Assembly: GCA_038131655.1 (NCBI GenBank)
Contig: JAYPPT010000004.1
Span: 56,767-120,766 of the forward strand
From: Alphaproteobacteria bacterium
GTDB lineage: Bacteria; Pseudomonadota; Alphaproteobacteria; SMXQ01
Direction of reading: 5' to 3'
DNA length: 64,000 nt
This document shows, piece after piece, positions 15,775 to 53,235 of this stretch. The position numbers were made by a program, and so were the translations under genes. Positions within the stretch are counted from its first letter, which is position 1. Each line of letters opens with the position of its first letter. The notes beneath the pieces are model-generated. The model searched no databases, was not told where the DNA came from, and saw only the letters and a program-made list of their open reading frames with translations.

Positions 15775-15950
15775 TATCGGGAATACAAGAGCGGAACGGA
15801 CGCCACCCCGCCGTCGGCCGGTAATATCCTCTGTGGCCCTCATCTGTAAGGTGGGCGCCATATACCGGGACCTCGATCCCGGCAGGGACAGCTCCCGAGG
15901 GCTAGAGTAACGGCCCCAGGGATAAAGTGGCCTAACGAGCGACGCAGCGC
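15775..15950 (-). ncRNA. ssrS: probable 6S RNA (ends +/- 15 nt)
   Basis: A 204-nt non-coding gap lies between the zapA stop (15966) and the cyclo-ligase start (15761), the conserved ssrS position. By hand the minus-strand RNA folds as an extended hairpin. UAUCCCUGGGGCC pairs with GGCCACAGAGGAUA, an apical hairpin CCGGGA-ucgagg-UCCCGG forms, and large internal loops remain. Not verified with a covariance model. Confidence 0.5.
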
Positions 15951-15965
15951 CCGCCCACCCCCTGT

Positions 15966-20119: not shown

Positions 20120-20215
20120 TTGCAAAAACGCCCCCGCTCCTTTATTCCTGAGGGCTGTTCCGCGACAGCGGCGATGCCCGGAACGGGTCCAATCCTCAGG
20201 GGGAAAAAGCAGGCG

Positions 20216-21145
20216 ATGAAGATCACCCAGCGCGTCAAAAAGATACTCGACAACTATGAAAGCGACAGTCCCGGCACCAAGGCCAACCTTGCCCGTATCC
20301 TGATGAACGGGCGGCTCGGCGGCACCGGCAAGCTGGTGATCCTGCCCGTGGACCAGGGTTTCGAACACGGCCCCGCGCGCTCCTTCGCCCCCAACCCCGA
20401 TGCCTACGACCCGCATTACCATTTCAAGCTGGCGATCGACGCGGGGCTTTCGGCCTACGCCGCCCCCCTCGGCATGATCGAGGCGGGTGCCGACAGCTTC
20501 GCCGGTGCCGTACCGACCATTCTCAAGGTGAACTCAAGCAACTCGCTGGCGCGCTTCAAGGAAGACGCCAACCAGGCGGTGACCGGCTCCATTGGCGATG
20601 CGCTGCGCCTCGGCTGCTCGGCCATCGGGTTGACCATCTATCCCGGCTCCGACGCCGCCTTCGACATGATGGAAGAAGCCCGCGAACTGGCGGAAGAAGC
20701 CAAGTCCGTCGGCCTTGCCGTGGTCATGTGGTCGTACCCGCGCGGCGGCGACCTGTCGAAGGCCGGCGAAACCGCCTTCGACATCTGCGCCTACGCCGCC
20801 CACATGGCGGCGCTGCTGGGCGCACACATCATCAAGGTCAAGCCGCCGACCGATGCGCTGGAACTCGATGCCGCCAAGAAGGTTTACGAGGAGCGCAAGA
20901 TTCCCAGCGCCACCCTGGCCGAACGCGTTGCCCACGTGGTCCAGTCGTCGTTCAACGGGCGCCGCCTGGTGGTGTTCTCCGGCGGTGAGGCCAAGGGCCT
21001 CGACGGCCTGATGAACGAAGTGCGCGGCATTCGCGACGGCGGCGGCACCGGCTCGATCATCGGGCGCAACACCTTCCAGCGCCCGCGCGAAGAAGCGCTG
21101 GCGATGCTGGACCAGATCATCAAGATCTATCAAGGCAAGGCATAG
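20216..21145 (+). CDS. fbaB: class I fructose-bisphosphate aldolase (FbaB/DhnA family)
   Basis: Trimmed to MKITQRVKKILDNYESDSPGTKANLARILMNGRLGGTGKLVILPVDQGFEHGP, which closely resembles the E. coli FbaB region [20 protein letters not shown]. A purine-rich SD lies upstream. Confidence 0.85.
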   Translation: MKITQRVKKILDNYESDSPGTKANLARILMNGRLGGTGKLVILPVDQGFEHGPARSFAPNPDAYDPHYHFKLAIDAGLSAYAAPLGMIEAGADSFAGAVPTILKVNSSNSLARFKEDANQAVTGSIGDALRLGCSAIGLTIYPGSDAAFDMMEEARELAEEAKSVGLAVVMWSYPRGGDLSKAGETAFDICAYAAHMAALLGAHIIKVKPPTDALELDAAKKVYEERKIPSATLAERVAHVVQSSFNGRRLVVFSGGEAKGLDGLMNEVRGIRDGGGTGSIIGRNTFQRPREEALAMLDQIIKIYQGKA

Positions 21146-21155
21146 GGAGAAAATC

Positions 21156-21584
21156 ATGGGCACCCTGATCAAACGCGTCGATCACCTCAACGTGCAGGTT
21201 CCGCCCGAAAAGGAGGAGGAGGCCAAGCTGTTCTACAAGGACCTGCTTGGCCTCACGCCGCTGAAGAAGCCCGACAGCCTGGGCCCGGCGGGGCAGCATT
21301 TCTGCATTTCCGAAGACCCCTATTACGAACTGCACCTCGGCGTCGCGCGCGGCACCACACAGGCCGACGTGAACAAGAACCTGCGCAATCATCTGGGCTT
21401 TCAGGTGGACGACCTGGCGGAAGCGCGCAAGCGGTTCGAGGCAGCGGGTGTGGAGGTCGAGGAGGCCGAGGCCGCCTATTCCGAGGAACGCGGCTTCCAC
21501 CAGGACCGCTTCTTCGTGCGTGACCCCGGCGGCAACCGGCTGGAGATTCTGGAACCGCGCCGTCCCTATTCCAGCGCGCACTAG
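21156..21584 (+). CDS. VOC (glyoxalase/bleomycin-resistance/dioxygenase) family protein
   Basis: 142 aa with [10 protein letters not shown]...HLGFQVDD...[15 protein letters not shown], the typical paired beta-alpha-beta-beta-beta module pattern. Confidence 0.65.
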
Positions 21585-21588
21585 GCGC

Positions 21589-22236
21589 ATGGAAAACGAA
21601 GCGGCGCCGCCCTGCCGCCTTTACCTGATTACGCCCGAACGGCTTGATCCCCTCGTCTTTCGCGACGATCTCGCCGCCGCGCTCGATGCGGGCGATGTCG
21701 CCTGCGTGCAGCTGCGCCTGAAAAACCTCGACGACGATGCGCTGCGCCGCGCCGCCGATTGCCTGTGCCCCGTCGCACAATCGCGTGACGTCGCCTTCAT
21801 CATGAACGACCGGCCCGACATCGCCCAGTCATCGGGCTGCGACGGCGTGCATATCGGACAGGACGACGGCAGCTATAAAGAGGCCCGCAACATCGTCGGG
21901 CCCAACGCCATCGTCGGCGTGACGTGCCACGATTCGCGCCACCTGGCGATCGAGGCCGCGGAACAAGGTGCGGATTACGTCGCCTTCGGCGCGTTTTATC
22001 CCACGACGACGAAGGACGCCAAGGGCCACCCGGACCCGGAAATCCTGACATGGTGGTCGGAGATGACGGAAGTGCCCTGCGTCGCCATCGGCGGCATTAC
22101 CGCCGCCAACTGCGCGCCGCTGCTCGCCGCGGGGGCCGACTTCATCGCCGTCATGGGCGCGGTGTGGAACCATCCGGACGGCCCGGCGGCAGGGGTGAAG
22201 GCGATGATTGAGGGGATTGGAAGAATTTCAGAATGA
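21589..22236 (+). CDS. thiE: thiamine phosphate synthase
   Basis: Trimmed to [17 protein letters not shown]. It carries the ...[15 protein letters not shown] and GAFYPTTTK...VAIGGI motifs of ThiE. The last ~8 codons (IEGIGRISE) lie in low-GC DNA. Confidence 0.85.
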
Positions 22237-23119
22237 TAATGACAAAAGTTGGCTTCCAACGATATTTAAAGTAGCGCGGGACCTCGGGTCAAATTTAACA
22301 CCGGTTGCCACAACTGGTGAGGTGCTGAATGGTTATGGCCCATCTATAGCACAAACAATCGATCGCGATTCCCCGCTTAACTTTGTGTTGCGAGTCGAGA
22401 TTGGTGACATTCTTGATGAAGACATCGATCTTAGAATTAGGGAAACCCTTTCCGCTCTTTCTTTGAGCCCATCTCAGTGTTTTGTCATTTTAGATTTTGG
22501 AGACGCCGACTTAACGGACGTAGAAGTTGCGACCGCAATCATAAAATCTGGAATCGAAACAATTCAATCCTTGGGCAATTGGAAACGGATAGTATTTCAA
22601 GGCACAAATTATCCAGAGAAAAATCCCGCGAGGGATGATGCTACCGCAATCGTTCCCCGCAATGAATTCCGTATTTGGTCAAAGATATGGGAAGACTCAG
22701 ACAACTATCGGCAGTGCCTGTTCGGCGATTTTGCGGCTGATAGCGCAAAGTTTAATTTTGGATCAGGCGGCGGAGGTTGGGTAATTCGCCATTTTCGTTA
22801 CTGTACTGCCGATAGGAATTGGATCGTAATAAGTGGGAAAGCTACCGACTCCTATAAGTATAAGGCCGCAATGACTTCCGTTAGCAATAGAATCCTTGCC
22901 AGCGGTAAATTTGCTGGAAAGGATTTTTCCTCAGCTGAGGACTACATTTATCAATTAGCCAAAGGAACAGGGGGGCCTGGCAACGCATCCACATGGCGTG
23001 AGATCAATGTAGCGCACCACGTAACTCAGGTGGTTCATGATCTTGGAAAACTTTATGGATTTAACGTGAATAAAGTTGCGGTCCGAGAATCAAGGACACA
23101 GAAATCGTTGTTCGATTAA
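22208..23119 (+). CDS. orphan low-GC protein, possibly Beta-protein family (Pfam PF14350, P4 gop-beta-cII), assigned from memory only; start uncertain (TTG 22208, TTG 22217 or GTG 22322)
   Basis: Uninterrupted 303-codon ORF with AT-rich codon usage. Counted lines 22381-22440 are 40% GC and 22801-22860 are 43% GC, against 78% for 22081-22140 in thiE. Motifs: [52 protein letters not shown]. It is followed by a terminator. Confidence 0.6.
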
Positions 23120-23158
23120 AAAAACGCCGGAGCGATTTTCACCGCCCCGGCGCTTTTG
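23117..23158. terminator. bidirectional intrinsic terminator shared by the low-GC ORF and the convergent binding-protein gene
   Basis: An A7 tract, a 10-bp stem cgccggagcg/cgccccggcg (1 mismatch), then cttttg. Confidence 0.55.
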
Positions 23159-23176
23159 CATTCACTCACATGGCCG

Positions 23177-24436
23177 CTACTTGCAGCTGATGTTCTTGGC
23201 CTGACCGCCTTCACCGAAGTAATCGATGTCGCACATCATGCCGGCCTTGAGCGCGCTGCGCTTGGCCTTCTTGCCGTTGATCTTGATCTTGGTCTTCTTG
23301 CCGACGCGCATCTTGGCGGTTCCCGCACCGGCGGAAACTTCGAGCCGGCCCTTCTTCTTCACCGCCTTGATGACGCCCGCAATGCGAACCGTCTTGGCCT
23401 TGTCGAGCTTGCCCGGCGGGCGGATGGCAGCGCGCAGAAGCTCCTGCACGTTCTGCGGCGCGGCATAGGCTTCGGCCACGATGCCCGCGACCTTTTCACC
23501 CGACAGCGGCGCGATGTCCACGCGAGCCTTCTTCGCTTCCGCCAGCAGTTCCTTCGACGCAAAGGTATCGGCATAGCCCTTGCGCAACGTCGCCACCCGT
23601 TCGGCGGGCGTGCCCGGCGGCGCGTAGATCGGGTAACCGACATCATAGGCCGCCATCTTCAGCTTCAGCGCCGCCTTCTTCATCGGGTCTTCCACCGCGT
23701 CGATAATCAGCGGCACGCTGGCCGGCACGCCGGGATAGCGTTCAAGCCCCATCTGGTAAAGAAGCGTGACCTTCTTGTCGGTCAGCCAGTCGGGATGGCG
23801 GCTGGTGATGCCCGCCCAGGCGGTGGTCACGCGGCCTTCTGTCTCGCCGCGGATCATGGCGAGATCGATGTCCGAACCCGACGGGTAGCCGATGATGACC
23901 TTGTACTTGAAGCCCATCAGGTTGTTCATCACGAAGCCGTCCACGGTGCTGGATGAGCCCATGCCCGAAGACCCCACCACCGTGGTGTGCTTGCGCAGGT
24001 CCTGCCACTTCTTGATTTTCGACGTGTGCCAGGCGATGGACACGGCGACGAATTTCACCGGGCTGCCGATCCAGTTGAACTTGTTGGGATCGAATTTCGC
24101 CTTCGACTTCTTGCCGTAGAACAGCGGCGCGAAGGGGATGGAGTTGAGCGAGCTGCCCAGCTCCGTGCCGTCCTTGGGCGCCTGGTTATAGATATAGTTG
24201 GCCCCGACAAGGCCGCCCGCGCCGGTCTTGTTCTTGGCCAGCACCGTGGGGTTGCCCGGCAGGTGCTTGCCGAGATGGCGCGCGCCGAGCCGCCCCATCA
24301 GGTCGACCGAGCCGCCGGAGCCCGACGTGATGAACACGGTCACCTTTTTTCCCTTGTAGAAATCCGCCGCCGTCGCCGCACCGGTGCCGAGCACCAGCGC
24401 CGCGCCCGCGGCCAATGCGAAGGATACTGTTTTCAT
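23177..24436 (-). CDS. TctC/Bug-like periplasmic solute-binding protein with ~85-aa Lys-rich C-terminal extra domain
   Basis: 419 aa. Signal peptide MKTVSFALAAGAALVLGTGAATA. The core ADFYKGKKVTVFITSGSGGSVDLMGRLGARHL...GAGGLVGANYIY resembles TTT-family receptors. A paralogue lies at 52189..53235. No tctA/tctB genes are nearby. Confidence 0.65.
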   Translation of the reverse strand: MKTVSFALAAGAALVLGTGAATAADFYKGKKVTVFITSGSGGSVDLMGRLGARHLGKHLPGNPTVLAKNKTGAGGLVGANYIYNQAPKDGTELGSSLNSIPFAPLFYGKKSKAKFDPNKFNWIGSPVKFVAVSIAWHTSKIKKWQDLRKHTTVVGSSGMGSSSTVDGFVMNNLMGFKYKVIIGYPSGSDIDLAMIRGETEGRVTTAWAGITSRHPDWLTDKKVTLLYQMGLERYPGVPASVPLIIDAVEDPMKKAALKLKMAAYDVGYPIYAPPGTPAERVATLRKGYADTFASKELLAEAKKARVDIAPLSGEKVAGIVAEAYAAPQNVQELLRAAIRPPGKLDKAKTVRIAGVIKAVKKKGRLEVSAGAGTAKMRVGKKTKIKINGKKAKRSALKAGMMCDIDYFGEGGQAKNISCK

Positions 24437-52188: not shown

Positions 52189-53235
52189 TTAGCGACCAAT
52201 CGCCTTCTTGGCGGCGGTGATCGCCGAAGCCGGGTAATTGCCGAAGCTTACCAGCAGCTTGATCGCCTGCTCGGCCGAAACCGGCTCGATGGCGATCCGC
52301 GTCTTCTTGGCGTCCGCCAGGAGCTGTTCGTCCTTGAGCGCGGCGAGGAAGCCCTCTTGCAACGCCTTGGCCCGATCGGCCGGCATACCCGGCGTGGCGA
52401 CGAAGGGTCGGCCCAACAACAACTGGCCGAAGTGGACTTCCAGAACCTTGCGCTGGGTATCGTCCTTGGCAAAGTCAAAGACGCTCGGCACCTTGCCGAA
52501 AACGTCGGTGGCGTCGGCACCACCCTGAATGACCAGGGTCATATCCTTCGAGTCCACGAAGCGCTGGTACTGCGCCTTGATCGATGACGTGAACAGGCCA
52601 CAGGTGCCGTCCACTTCACCGCGCTGCATCGCCAGGTTGACGTCCTTGGTCCCCTTGTAGCCGGTCAGCACCTTCGCCTTCACGCCACTGACGGCGGCGA
52701 TGATCTTCGGGTGCTGCGCGGTAATGGCGGCGGGGCCGGTTGCACCGAAGGTCAGCTGCTTGCCCGACTTGAGCCACTGGTCCATGGAGGAAATACCGGC
52801 TGTCTTCCAGACGGCACAGAAAGCGACGTCCTTGCTCATGGAGCCGATCCAGGTGAACTTGGTCGCCTCGAACAACGCCTTCTTGTTGCCGAACAACGGC
52901 TCCATCAGCGTCGAGGCACCGACCAGCGCCATTTCCGTGCCGTCCTTCTTGGCGGCGGCATAGATGTAGTTGGCGGCACGCAATGCGCCGGAACCGGGCA
53001 TGTTGCGCGGTATTACGTTGGGACGGCCGGAAATATGGCGGCCGTAATGGCGCGCCAGAACGCGCGCGTAGGTGTCATAACCGCCGCCGGCACCGAAGCC
53101 GATGTTGATGGTGACGTTCTTGCCCTTGTAGAAATCTGCTGCCGTGTCGGCCTTTACCGCGGGCGCCGACATGGCACCGAGCGCGAGCGTAAGCACGGCC
53201 GCGCCGAAGCCCGCCCGAACCTGAATGATCTGCAT
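52189..53235 (-). CDS. TctC/Bug-like periplasmic solute-binding protein (paralogue of 23177..24436, without the C-terminal extension)
   Basis: Trimmed to MQIIQVRAGFGAAVLTLALGAMSAPAVKA. ADFYKGKNVTINIGFGAGGGYDTYARVLARHY...GSGALRAANYIY is collinear with the other copy. Confidence 0.65.
   Translation of the reverse strand: MQIIQVRAGFGAAVLTLALGAMSAPAVKADTAADFYKGKNVTINIGFGAGGGYDTYARVLARHYGRHISGRPNVIPRNMPGSGALRAANYIYAAAKKDGTEMALVGASTLMEPLFGNKKALFEATKFTWIGSMSKDVAFCAVWKTAGISSMDQWLKSGKQLTFGATGPAAITAQHPKIIAAVSGVKAKVLTGYKGTKDVNLAMQRGEVDGTCGLFTSSIKAQYQRFVDSKDMTLVIQGGADATDVFGKVPSVFDFAKDDTQRKVLEVHFGQLLLGRPFVATPGMPADRAKALQEGFLAALKDEQLLADAKKTRIAIEPVSAEQAIKLLVSFGNYPASAITAAKKAIGR

Follow-up and report, generated by a model that had tools for sequence, protein, structure and literature searches.

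Between thiE and a convergent gene for a periplasmic binding protein, the 64-kb stretch of alphaproteobacterial DNA analysed here (the window) carries a short AT-rich block that holds one open reading frame (ORF) of 303 codons. An initial annotation, made from the DNA letters alone, had read this ORF as an intact orphan gene and as the best candidate in the window for a defence or accessory function. What is this block, how did it come to lie between two genes of the host, and does it specify a working protein?

Composition and boundaries of the block

The features to which we refer are the following.

21589 to 22236, plus strand: thiE, thiamine-phosphate synthase (PF02581), from ortholog C-termini, the empty-site allele L125, the tails of the thiE cluster and the Pfam label on sister contigs
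22208 to 23119, plus strand: chimeric 303-codon ORF, from the ORF list, reconstruction of the junction and the in-frame starts
22221 to 23119, plus strand: 899-bp foreign insert, the 3' three-quarters of a PF14350/PD-lambda-2_C gene, from the comparison with L125, HMM matches and alignment A2
23120 to 23160, minus strand: intrinsic terminator of the binding-protein gene, from folding of both strands and a three-allele comparison
23177 to 24436, minus strand: TctC-family periplasmic binding-protein gene (PF03401), convergent and part of the host core, from the ORF, Pfam and source names

The abrupt shift in composition that the initial annotation described is reproduced both by its own 60-nt counts (GC 0.783 at 22080, 0.40 at 22200 and 0.433 at 22800) and by sliding windows, GC being 0.405-0.48 in 200-nt windows across 22200-23199 and 0.59-0.82 in the flanks. 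The bin holding the insert (0.504) is the sole 1-kb bin of the 64-kb window with a GC below 0.58, and GC3 falls to 0.42 in the Beta-derived ORF from 0.83 in thiE, the value for the binding-protein gene being 0.87. With 44.5% GC in a genome of about 65%, the block is indeed foreign.

Because L125, from a sister lineage that is 91% identical, carries the empty site, a base-by-base comparison with this allele could place the junctions exactly, at 22221 and 23119 (899 bp). The insert replaces 32 bp, comprising the last three thiE codons, the stop codon and a 19-nt spacer, and thereby changes the ThiE tail from ...GIGAAK to ...GIGRISE. The insert had been thought to provide the end of thiE, and it does supply the stop, but only the last four codons (RISE) rather than about eight. 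It runs from the equivalent of Beta residue ~85 to the Beta TAA stop, and its right junction is formed by the terminator, an A/U-tract followed by a GC-rich hairpin, whose A-run is 7 nt long in the window and 5 nt in the empty allele. The description of this terminator as bidirectional fits one strand better than the other: on the minus strand, where it serves the binding-protein gene, it is strong (-32.7 kcal/mol, z=-4.2, with a U7 tail), but on the plus strand it is weak, at -20.2 kcal/mol (z=-1.4).

No flanking direct repeats were found at the insert junctions; direct and inverted matches between the two ends are short and chance-like, and we rejected the ends as att sites for this reason. 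The 64-kb window holds no tRNA gene, and probes for IS3 transposase and tyrosine integrase, the two used, detected no homologue in it, so that within the reach of these searches the earlier report of a locus free of integrase, IS, tRNA and direct repeats stands. We also considered the terminator hairpin and GGGGATTGG as repeated REP-like elements, but either the window has just the one copy or matches are no more frequent than chance would give. The block thus has none of the usual marks of an integrative island (integrase, tRNA or att target, direct repeats) and its junction motifs are unrepeated; what it shares with islands is an unusual composition and its presence in only some of a set of close relatives.

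A reading frame joined across the left junction

The ORF at 22208-23119 begins with TTG, encodes 303 aa and has its earliest in-frame ATG at codon 222. Codons 1-4 (TTG AGG GGA TTG) and one further base belong to thiE but are read in its +1 frame, and the remainder, after the junction, is Beta-derived. Both candidate TTG starts (22208 and 22217), the only plausible ones, therefore lie within thiE sequence, out of frame; on sister contigs the ORF is called from the second of them and has 300 aa. The ORF is thus an accidental chimera in which a 5'-truncated Beta fragment is fused to thiE. Translational coupling of the ORF is conceivable, since its first 29 nt coincide with the end of thiE and a GAAGG motif, recognised by sequence only, precedes the TTG at 22208 by 6 nt. 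The 303-codon frame was open in none of 20000 composition-matched shuffles.

A truncated member of the Beta family

The family that had been named in the initial annotation is the right one, and all of the protein motifs it quoted are found in the 303-aa translation. The ORF matches PF14350 (Beta_protein) with 135.4 bits (cut-off 27, E=4.2e-39), its best PADLOC model is PD-Lambda-2_C (2e-24), and PF14350 is carried by all 55 database homologues, the closest full-length one being 47% identical to the ORF. An NCBIfam search of the ORF gave no match, and tblastn against a phage collection gave two weak matches only (23-25% identity). A sequence-profile search found no solved structure for the family. 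In an AF2 model of a full-length relative (pLDDT 91, pTM 0.91), to which a 379-aa homologue from a Gordonia phage corresponds over 378 alignment columns (TM 0.77), Foldseek matches in the PDB were weak and all to TIM-barrel proteins (TM 0.25-0.37); the model suggests a beta/alpha barrel-like architecture, and we claim no specific enzyme fold.

The 5' part of the gene is missing. Of the 342 positions of the PF14350 profile only 80-342 are matched, the matches to PADLOC and PHROG models begin at about position 90-130 (of the PD-Lambda-2_C model, about 90/129-361 is present), and full-length relatives have 378-386 aa. The first Beta-derived residue of the ORF aligns to residue 85 of the relative P0004 (alignment A2), so that 84 N-terminal family residues are absent, among them 16 columns with at least 90% conservation. 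The missing conserved block (Y9, R14, K16, G18, E19, P36, P41, P42, W71 and R74 in P0004 numbering) is found neither in the ORF nor in the rest of the window. In the AF2 model residues 1-80 form b1-a1-b2-a2-b3, and three strands and two helices are accordingly lost here. The retained part keeps 47 of its 50 columns with at least 90% conservation; Arg288, which does not vary among 44 homologues, has been replaced by Ser in the window and by Gly in sister strains, and in the window ORF the invariant Asp321 is Glu and W233 is Phe.

Could the ORF be a natural short form of the family? One candidate, P0007, was rejected as having a mis-called start, its short form being an artefact since the full ORF is present in L002, and P0015 is probably an artefact too, as a similar gap of about 260 nt follows its upstream partner gene. 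A natural short form is therefore unlikely, but P0026, an N-terminally short homologue on a long contig that begins at about residue 116, may be one. The ORF of the window is shorter than the intact family members checked and has a non-native start, as a gene fragment would. The truncation and the fusion to thiE sequence together overturn the view that it is an intact orphan gene.

The absent partner gene

In all six full-length relatives examined, a gene encoding an HTH_3 domain and a Peptidase_M78 domain lies directly upstream of the Beta gene, and this Xre-HTH/M78-peptidase neighbour matches PD-Lambda-2_B (1e-70). A tblastn search of the 64-kb window with four such B proteins returned nothing at E<0.1; the actual neighbours of the fragment are thiE and the TctC-family gene. 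The 899-bp insert contains the Beta fragment only, and component A of PD-lambda-2 (HigB-like) is absent from it; in the full-length relatives, too, the system consists of two genes (B+C), no HigB-like A gene having been called upstream of them. In Nitrospirillum (L116) the M78+Beta pair forms a compact two-gene block of 46% GC in DNA of 65-72% GC, with no integrase near it. The gene is thus solitary, as had been noted: neither gop/cII-type partners nor PD-lambda-2 A or B was found.

In PD-lambda-2, C is needed for defence along with A and B, and B is toxic when alone (PMC9519451). The beta protein of satellite phage P4 likewise acts jointly with gop, of which it is the antitoxin-like partner (PMC9122126), and gop-beta-cII as a whole is a toxin-antitoxin-like abortive-infection system (PMC9122126; bioRxiv 10.1101/2023.04.06.535777).

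Distribution and probable decay

The Beta fragment is present in all assemblies of a clade of about 99.5% identity and lies at thiE in none of 56 related genomes; this, with the empty site in the 91%-identical lineage, upholds the earlier proposal of horizontal acquisition. A comparison of the thiE locus across relatives had also been called for, and it shows that the gene is not universal there, its presence being polymorphic. The species-level genome set offers no thiE closer than 75% identity, a distance at which junctions cannot be analysed. A low-GC block after thiE in Acidiphilium was considered as the same phenomenon and rejected, as it is a glycosyltransferase island beside a glycosyltransferase cluster.

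Between the window and its sister strains, a single pairwise lineage comparison with 8 substitutions in the Beta ORF, five of these are non-synonymous and three synonymous (omega 0.49, dS 0.0146), against three and 12 in the flanking genes (omega 0.08, dS 0.0137). Under host-like constraint the probability of at least five non-synonymous changes is 0.015, and neutrality fits (p=0.26); the omega of 0.49 is below 1, but not significantly, and Fisher's test against the flanks gives p=0.07. Sister-strain copies carry L84P and D67G, and in one sister-strain metagenome-assembled genome (MAG; GCA_038153805.1) an IS3-family element lies inside the ORF at about 23098. An open frame is to be expected by chance at such an age, since a frame would escape any stop with probability 0.71 after 8 substitutions and 0.28 after 30. 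The initial annotation had allowed for a decaying remnant as its fallback, and the truncation and elevated dN/dS suggest that this is essentially what the block is. Its choice of the ORF as the foremost candidate for a role in defence or an accessory function does not hold for a gene that is truncated, partnerless, apparently under relaxed constraint and hit by an IS in a sister strain.

A second insertion at the same site

Three alleles of the locus occur within one 90% thiE cluster: empty, Beta fragment and DUF6680. The last, in a third lineage, is a frameshifted (dead) AT-rich DUF6680 gene inserted at almost the same breakpoints as the Beta insert. The right junction is common to both inserts (TTAA and a lengthened A-run), the TAA of each lying flush against the lengthened terminator A-tract; the left junctions are 0-3 nt apart, each within 3 nt of thiE GGGGAT, and the DUF6680 allele keeps its own 5' region. 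The tree of the flanking genes, ((empty, DUF6680), Beta), implies independent insertions. We considered a single ancestral island with DUF6680 and Beta, reduced by deletions in each lineage, and disfavour it, as the empty lineage is sister to the DUF6680 lineage and the deletions would have to end exactly at the junctions. The L059/L129 cargo showed no similarity to the DNA around full-length Beta modules.

Discussion

We consider it highly probable, from the comparisons of sequence set out above, that the AT-rich block is a horizontally acquired, 5'-truncated and probably non-functional fragment of a Beta gene. A foreign AT-rich piece of 899 bp has replaced 32 bp between the convergent thiE and TctC-family genes, presumably by illegitimate (microhomology-type) recombination, either as a one-step capture or as a larger module later reduced by deletion. 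The fragment would now be a passive passenger, lengthening the thiE transcript by 900 nt ahead of the shared terminator, and would be drifting. That it has no function is the most likely reading, and we think it most likely that it acts by no mechanism at all, because the start codon is accidental, the N-terminus is lost and the M78 partner is absent. Its demonstrable effects are limited to a new four-residue ThiE tail and a wider gap between the convergent genes.

How the fragment arrived is less clear, and one possible history, which we hold tentatively and which is compatible with a dead fragment, has two steps. A full Xre-HTH/M78 and Beta (B+C) module would have been inserted ahead of the terminator A-tract, and one deletion, from thiE codon -3 to Beta codon ~85, would then have removed B and the 5' end of Beta. 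B lies immediately upstream in every full-length relative examined, the L116 pair is likewise compact, AT-rich and free of a nearby integrase, the insert ends in what looks like the natural stop of Beta, and the toxicity of B alone (PMC9519451) would favour its loss. Against this, no intermediate allele was found among the alleles searched; in L116 the AT-rich DNA does not end until about 70-120 nt after the Beta stop, while the present insert is flush with the stop; and the independent DUF6680 allele, with nearly the same breakpoints and its own 5' region, suggests that the breakpoints were set at insertion.

Those shared breakpoints raise the question of whether foreign genes are captured specifically in the gap that separates the thiE tail from the terminator, by a site-specific or structure-guided process that is directed by the A-tract or the terminator, operates without a recombinase or mobile backbone, and repeatedly exchanges the ~32-bp thiE tail and spacer for single AT-rich genes. 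We think this unlikely. It would account for three alleles in a single 90% thiE cluster, for the common right junction and closely spaced left junctions, and for the independent events that the tree implies. Yet no recombinase, att-like repeats or repeated junction motif was found, selection leaves room for viable breakpoints only within the roughly 32 bp that separate the end of a needed gene from a needed terminator, microhomology in the A-tract could set the right junction with no dedicated machinery, the events number only two, and recombination between lineages could distort the tree.

More improbable still is a working solitary Beta-like protein, translated from a TTG within thiE through coupling to thiE translation and acting as an orphan antitoxin ('anti-addiction') against gop- or M78-type toxins, or in stand-alone defence or an accessory role. 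The frame is open, the retained part keeps 47 of its 50 conserved residues, an SD-like GAAGG precedes the TTG of an ORF that overlaps thiE, the fragment is fixed within its clade, and P4 beta is described as an antitoxin-like partner of gop (PMC9122126). But such a protein would lack 84 N-terminal residues, among them the conserved block that is easiest to recognise and three strands of the fold, and would carry mutated invariant residues; its dN/dS is six times that of its neighbours, a sister strain has an IS in it, the window holds no partner, its start codon is an accident of the junction, and the parallel allele at the same site also holds a dead gene. A cis-acting DNA or RNA role (3' UTR, spacer of the convergent units or silencer-binding patch) is the least credible reading of all, for although the block fills the interval from a stop codon to the only strong terminator, so that co-transcription with thiE is expected, and AT-rich DNA is retained here in a second lineage as well, the empty allele works with a 19-nt spacer, and the region has no Rfam match, no excess of promoter or terminator motifs and no sequence sign of structured RNA.

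Taken as a dead fragment, the insert can be set beside several known systems. PD-lambda-2 C (Vassallo et al. 2022, PMC9519451) is its best defence-model match, and its full-length relatives sit behind a PD-Lambda-2_B-type Xre-HTH/M78-peptidase gene; unlike that system, the ORF covers only part of the C model and the A and B genes are absent, so a PD-lambda-2 system cannot be assembled. With the Beta protein of satellite phage P4, founder of PF14350 in gop-beta-cII, it shares the Pfam family (135 bits), and with P4-type hotspots the AT-rich accessory DNA, but it comes without gop, cII or a satellite backbone and as a 5'-truncated copy. Conserved thiE and TctC flanks, alternative AT-rich cargo, an empty state and one cargo from a defence family also recall accessory or defence hotspots, from which the locus differs in that its cargos are of 0.65-0.9 kb with one gene each, both dead, and in that no integrase or mobile-element backbone is found here. 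It most resembles ordinary bacterial pseudogenes in being an internal piece of a gene that adjoins host DNA with neither repeats nor a recombinase, with a small host deletion, an accidental chimeric ORF, elevated dN/dS and an IS insertion in a sister strain; the replacement of the same ~32-bp segment twice, with different cargo, would not be expected of random events.

Taken by itself, the Beta fragment is nothing unusual as a product of horizontal transfer, being a broken and partnerless gene of a known defence family. It also calls for caution in annotation, as gene callers and HMM scans label the ORF 'Beta protein' and a defence-finder could count the chimera. The empty, Beta and DUF6680 alleles together are a clean natural case of repeated small-scale capture of foreign DNA between convergent genes, and the three-allele locus could be used for studying how such joins form in high-GC alphaproteobacteria. 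If targeted capture, rather than coincidence and selection, did prove to lie behind it, the locus would reveal an undescribed route by which single foreign genes are acquired.

Composition and family of the ORF

The ORF between thiE and the convergent TctC-family binding-protein gene lies in DNA whose composition shifts sharply: over about 22200-23200 GC is 0.405-0.48 in 200-nt windows, against 0.59-0.82 in the flanks, and this region forms the sole 1-kb bin in the window below 0.58. The 60-nt counts of the initial annotation were reproduced (0.783 at 22080, 0.40 at 22200 and 0.433 at 22800), as was its remark that the ORF has no in-frame ATG near its 5' end, the first lying no earlier than codon 222.

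22208-23119, plus strand: Beta ORF, 303 aa, TTG start

GC3, 0.42 in this ORF, reaches 0.83 in thiE and 0.87 in the binding-protein gene that follows. The reported absence of integrase, IS, tRNA and flanking repeats also stood: the window holds no tRNA genes, no flanking repeats were found around the insert, and an IS3 transposase and a tyrosine integrase probe (these two) found no homologue in the window. Scanning the window with Rfam at gathering threshold yields one family match, a 6S/SsrS RNA gene (15796-15953, minus strand; RF00013, 67.5 bits, E=3.5e-11). A second, diverged TctC-family paralogue lies at ~52845-53145; over part of the binding-protein gene at 23177-24436 the two are 67-70% identical in nucleotide sequence.

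The resemblance to PF14350 that had been proposed is correct: Pfam Beta_protein matches the ORF at 135 bits (cut-off 27, E=4.2e-39), PADLOC identifies it as PD-Lambda-2_C (2e-24) and PHROGs as phrog_9159, while NCBIfam gives no match. The 5.8 billion proteins searched contain 55 homologues, usually 378-386 aa long, the closest being 47% identical once a single 98%-identical copy is set aside. The Pfam match starts at profile position 80 of 342 and the PADLOC and PHROG matches at model positions ~90-130; in the alignment the first ~80 residues are absent, including the strongly conserved Y-P-LR-K-GE ... PP-KERD block. The first Beta-derived residue maps to position 85, meaning that 84 residues, and with them 16 alignment columns conserved at 90% or more, are lost. 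We found no trace of the Beta N-terminus in the window.

The homologue P0007 was considered as a natural short form and rejected: the DNA of its contig, L002, has a full-length frame (MRSKTPICYVPALRLKQGEY...) upstream of the called start, and the public gene call (L002:2645-3907) takes an internal Met or Leu as its start, ~80 codons too far in. Another apparently short homologue, P0015, has a similar ~260-nt gap behind its upstream gene. Late start calls of this kind, confirmed for at least one homologue (that of L002), create spurious short Beta members that mimic the window's real truncation.

An AlphaFold2 model of P0004, a full-length relative, built on a 45-sequence alignment (pLDDT 91, pTM 0.91), has alternating strands and helices, with three strands and two helices predicted for residues 1-80. 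No solved structure was found by sequence match to the family. Foldseek matches to the PDB are weak (TM 0.25-0.37) but all to TIM-barrel proteins, and we therefore claim for the family only a predicted barrel-like β/α architecture. In the viral library a Gordonia phage protein (379 aa) matches the model over 378 alignment columns (TM 0.77), which argues that the N-terminal part belongs to the conserved Beta fold.

Full-length loci

PD-lambda-2 is a defence system with components A (HigB-like), B (Xre-HTH/M78 peptidase) and C (Beta family). In all six full-length contexts the Beta gene lies directly 3' of an HTH_3+Peptidase_M78 gene (413-440 aa) that matches PD-Lambda-2_B (1e-70), and where the Beta start is correctly called the two overlap or are at most 13 nt apart. 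The surroundings are often rich in mobile or defence genes (integrase/AlpA/DUF3987, ArdA, OLD-TOPRIM with a UvrD-like helicase, or DNA methylase), and the pair has 46-52% GC regardless of host. In Nitrospirillum sp. BR 11752 (L116:4700-7260) it forms a compact 2.5-kb, 46% GC block in a 65-72% GC chromosome, and integrase, IS and tRNA are all missing among the called neighbours; this pair is an intact island of minimal size, and the window may once have carried one like it. We note that in alphaproteobacterial-type relatives (L114-L117, L002) the PD-lambda-2-like module is a two-gene B+C pair, with no HigB-like A gene called upstream and with an extra ~80-residue N-terminal extension on the B proteins. 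This pair may represent a two-gene form of the system published with three genes.

In PD-lambda-2, C is required for defence along with A and B, and B on its own is toxic (PMC9519451). The P4 gop-beta-cII module confers protection against lambda and P1, and its gop is toxic when beta is missing (PMC9122126); the system is triggered by the phage accessory gene orf184 (bioRxiv 10.1101/2023.04.06.535777). From the literature on PD-lambda-2 and gop-beta-cII, the only Beta-family proteins known are therefore members of multi-gene modules. The window holds a Beta fragment without a B gene, of which no trace was found there.

Junctions and the empty site

The same arrangement, at 99.2-99.7% identity, is present in L001, L118/L121, L119/L122 and L123, sister contigs from three JGI samples and one MAG that were found through an identical binding protein or thiE. 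Searching with the binding protein also found a 92%-identical relative on L125, a contig of the same sample series, which aligns to window 24739-23120 and then straight on to 22220-22179. In window orientation this empty allele reads ...GTGAAGGCGATGCTGGAGGGGATTGG / CGCCGCTAAATAAGGCCGCCGCACACACAAAG / AAAAACGCCGGAGCG..., and its thiE ends in VKAMLEGIGAAK before the stop. In the window 32 nt of this allele are exchanged for 899 nt (22221-23119, 44.5% GC), altering the thiE tail. The stop and last codons of thiE do come from the insert, as had been proposed, but the comparison with L125 makes these four codons rather than ~8. In 18 relatives the thiE orthologues stop at the same point to within a few residues, and thiE is therefore essentially intact. 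Some Beta-insert strains of other assemblies (P0130, P0133) have the tail ...GIGRISN, not ...GIGRISE, which requires two base changes within the first 16 nt of the insert and represents further variation in the fragment.

Codons 1-4 of the Beta ORF (TTG AGG GGA TTG) are thiE DNA in another frame, which makes the ORF a chimera whose start codons are accidental. The TAA that ends the insert directly abuts the A-tract of a hairpin, the terminator of the binding-protein gene. Described initially as bidirectional, this terminator is strong on the minus strand (-32.7 kcal/mol, z=-4.2) and weak on the other. A relative with 83% identity (L126:1419-2600) has, downstream of the binding-protein gene, a co-directional glyoxalase gene and a membrane-protein gene instead of a convergent thiE; only a narrower clade therefore has thiE and the binding-protein gene side by side.

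A second insert and routes of arrival

L059, a metagenome contig, follows window 20213-22217 at 92% identity before passing into different, 42% GC DNA. The thiE 90% protein cluster contains three tail alleles, ...GIGRISE/...GRISN (Beta insert), ...GIGAAK (empty) and ...VKGMNT (L059-type), and in L129-L131 the third accompanies a ~646-bp, 43.5% GC insert between thiE and the same terminator.

L129:1456-2101 (also L130, L131, L059/L132): DUF6680 insert, upstream region and DUF6680 gene

The gene matches PF20385 (E=1e-55, scored on a repaired translation) and has a frameshift at an A7 run in three of three assemblies. At the left junction this insert reads GGGGAT/GAATAC and the window GGGGAT(TGG)/AAGAAT; at the right, ...GTCTTAA + A9 and ...GATTAA + A7, against A5 in the empty allele. 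In the tree of the binding-protein gene, ((empty, DUF6680), Beta), the first two alleles share 36 derived sites, compared with 12 and 9 for the other two pairings. Parsimony therefore favours a site that was ancestrally empty and received two insertions independently. In a distant alphaproteobacterium, Acidiphilium sp. C61, a further low-GC block touches the thiE 3' end (L029:6600-8600, ~2 kb, 40% GC in a 70% GC genome); it carries, on the opposite strand, a glycosyltransferase-like ORF of 548 aa beside a large glycosyltransferase gene, and we set it apart from the two inserts described here.

The right junction may be set by A-tract microhomology of the donor gene's own terminator with the host terminator, and selection for thiE and the terminator would confine viable breakpoints to about 32 bp. 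Microhomology and selection do not account for the left-junction coincidence or the recurrence at this site. The fragment may have been captured in a single step. Arrival of a complete B+C module, such as the pair in Nitrospirillum, later cut down by one deletion, seems possible but rather doubtful. A site-specific capture process, to which the shared site might point, is improbable; neither junction motif is repeated elsewhere in the window.

Selection and probable decay

Between the window and its sister strains the Beta ORF has 8 differences (5 amino-acid changes, 3 synonymous), and thiE, the binding protein and the amidohydrolase together have 15 (3 non-synonymous, 12 synonymous). dS is equal (0.0146 in the Beta ORF, 0.0137 in the flanking genes), which argues that the fragment has been vertically inherited with its flanks. 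The resulting dN/dS is 0.49 in Beta, from its 8 differences, and 0.08 in the flanking genes. Were Beta constrained like a host gene, at least five non-synonymous changes among the 8 would arise with P=0.015; neutral evolution fits the counts (P=0.26), and a Fisher test comparing Beta with the flanks has p=0.07. R288, an Arg in 44 of 44 homologues, has been replaced by Ser in the window and by Gly in the sister strains, the family-invariant D321 is Glu and W233 is Phe in the window, and the sister strains carry L84P and D67G at conserved positions. In the MAG GCA_038153805.1 (L120:1438-2658) an IS3-family element (HTH_Tnp_1 + rve) with TGATCCT... terminal inverted repeats lies in the 3' end of the ORF, at ~23098. 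Past this element L120 continues into an unrelated host gene, reflecting either a rearrangement or contigs joined across copies of the IS during assembly. Because only 4.2% of substitutions in the Beta ORF create a stop (the chance of a still-open frame is 0.71 after 8 and 0.28 after 30), the open frame is no strong evidence of function.

The initial expectation of a defence or accessory gene is not borne out. Very probably, the ORF is a horizontally acquired, 5'-truncated fragment of the PD-lambda-2C / P4-beta family that was accidentally fused to thiE sequence, stands without its partner and is probably non-functional.
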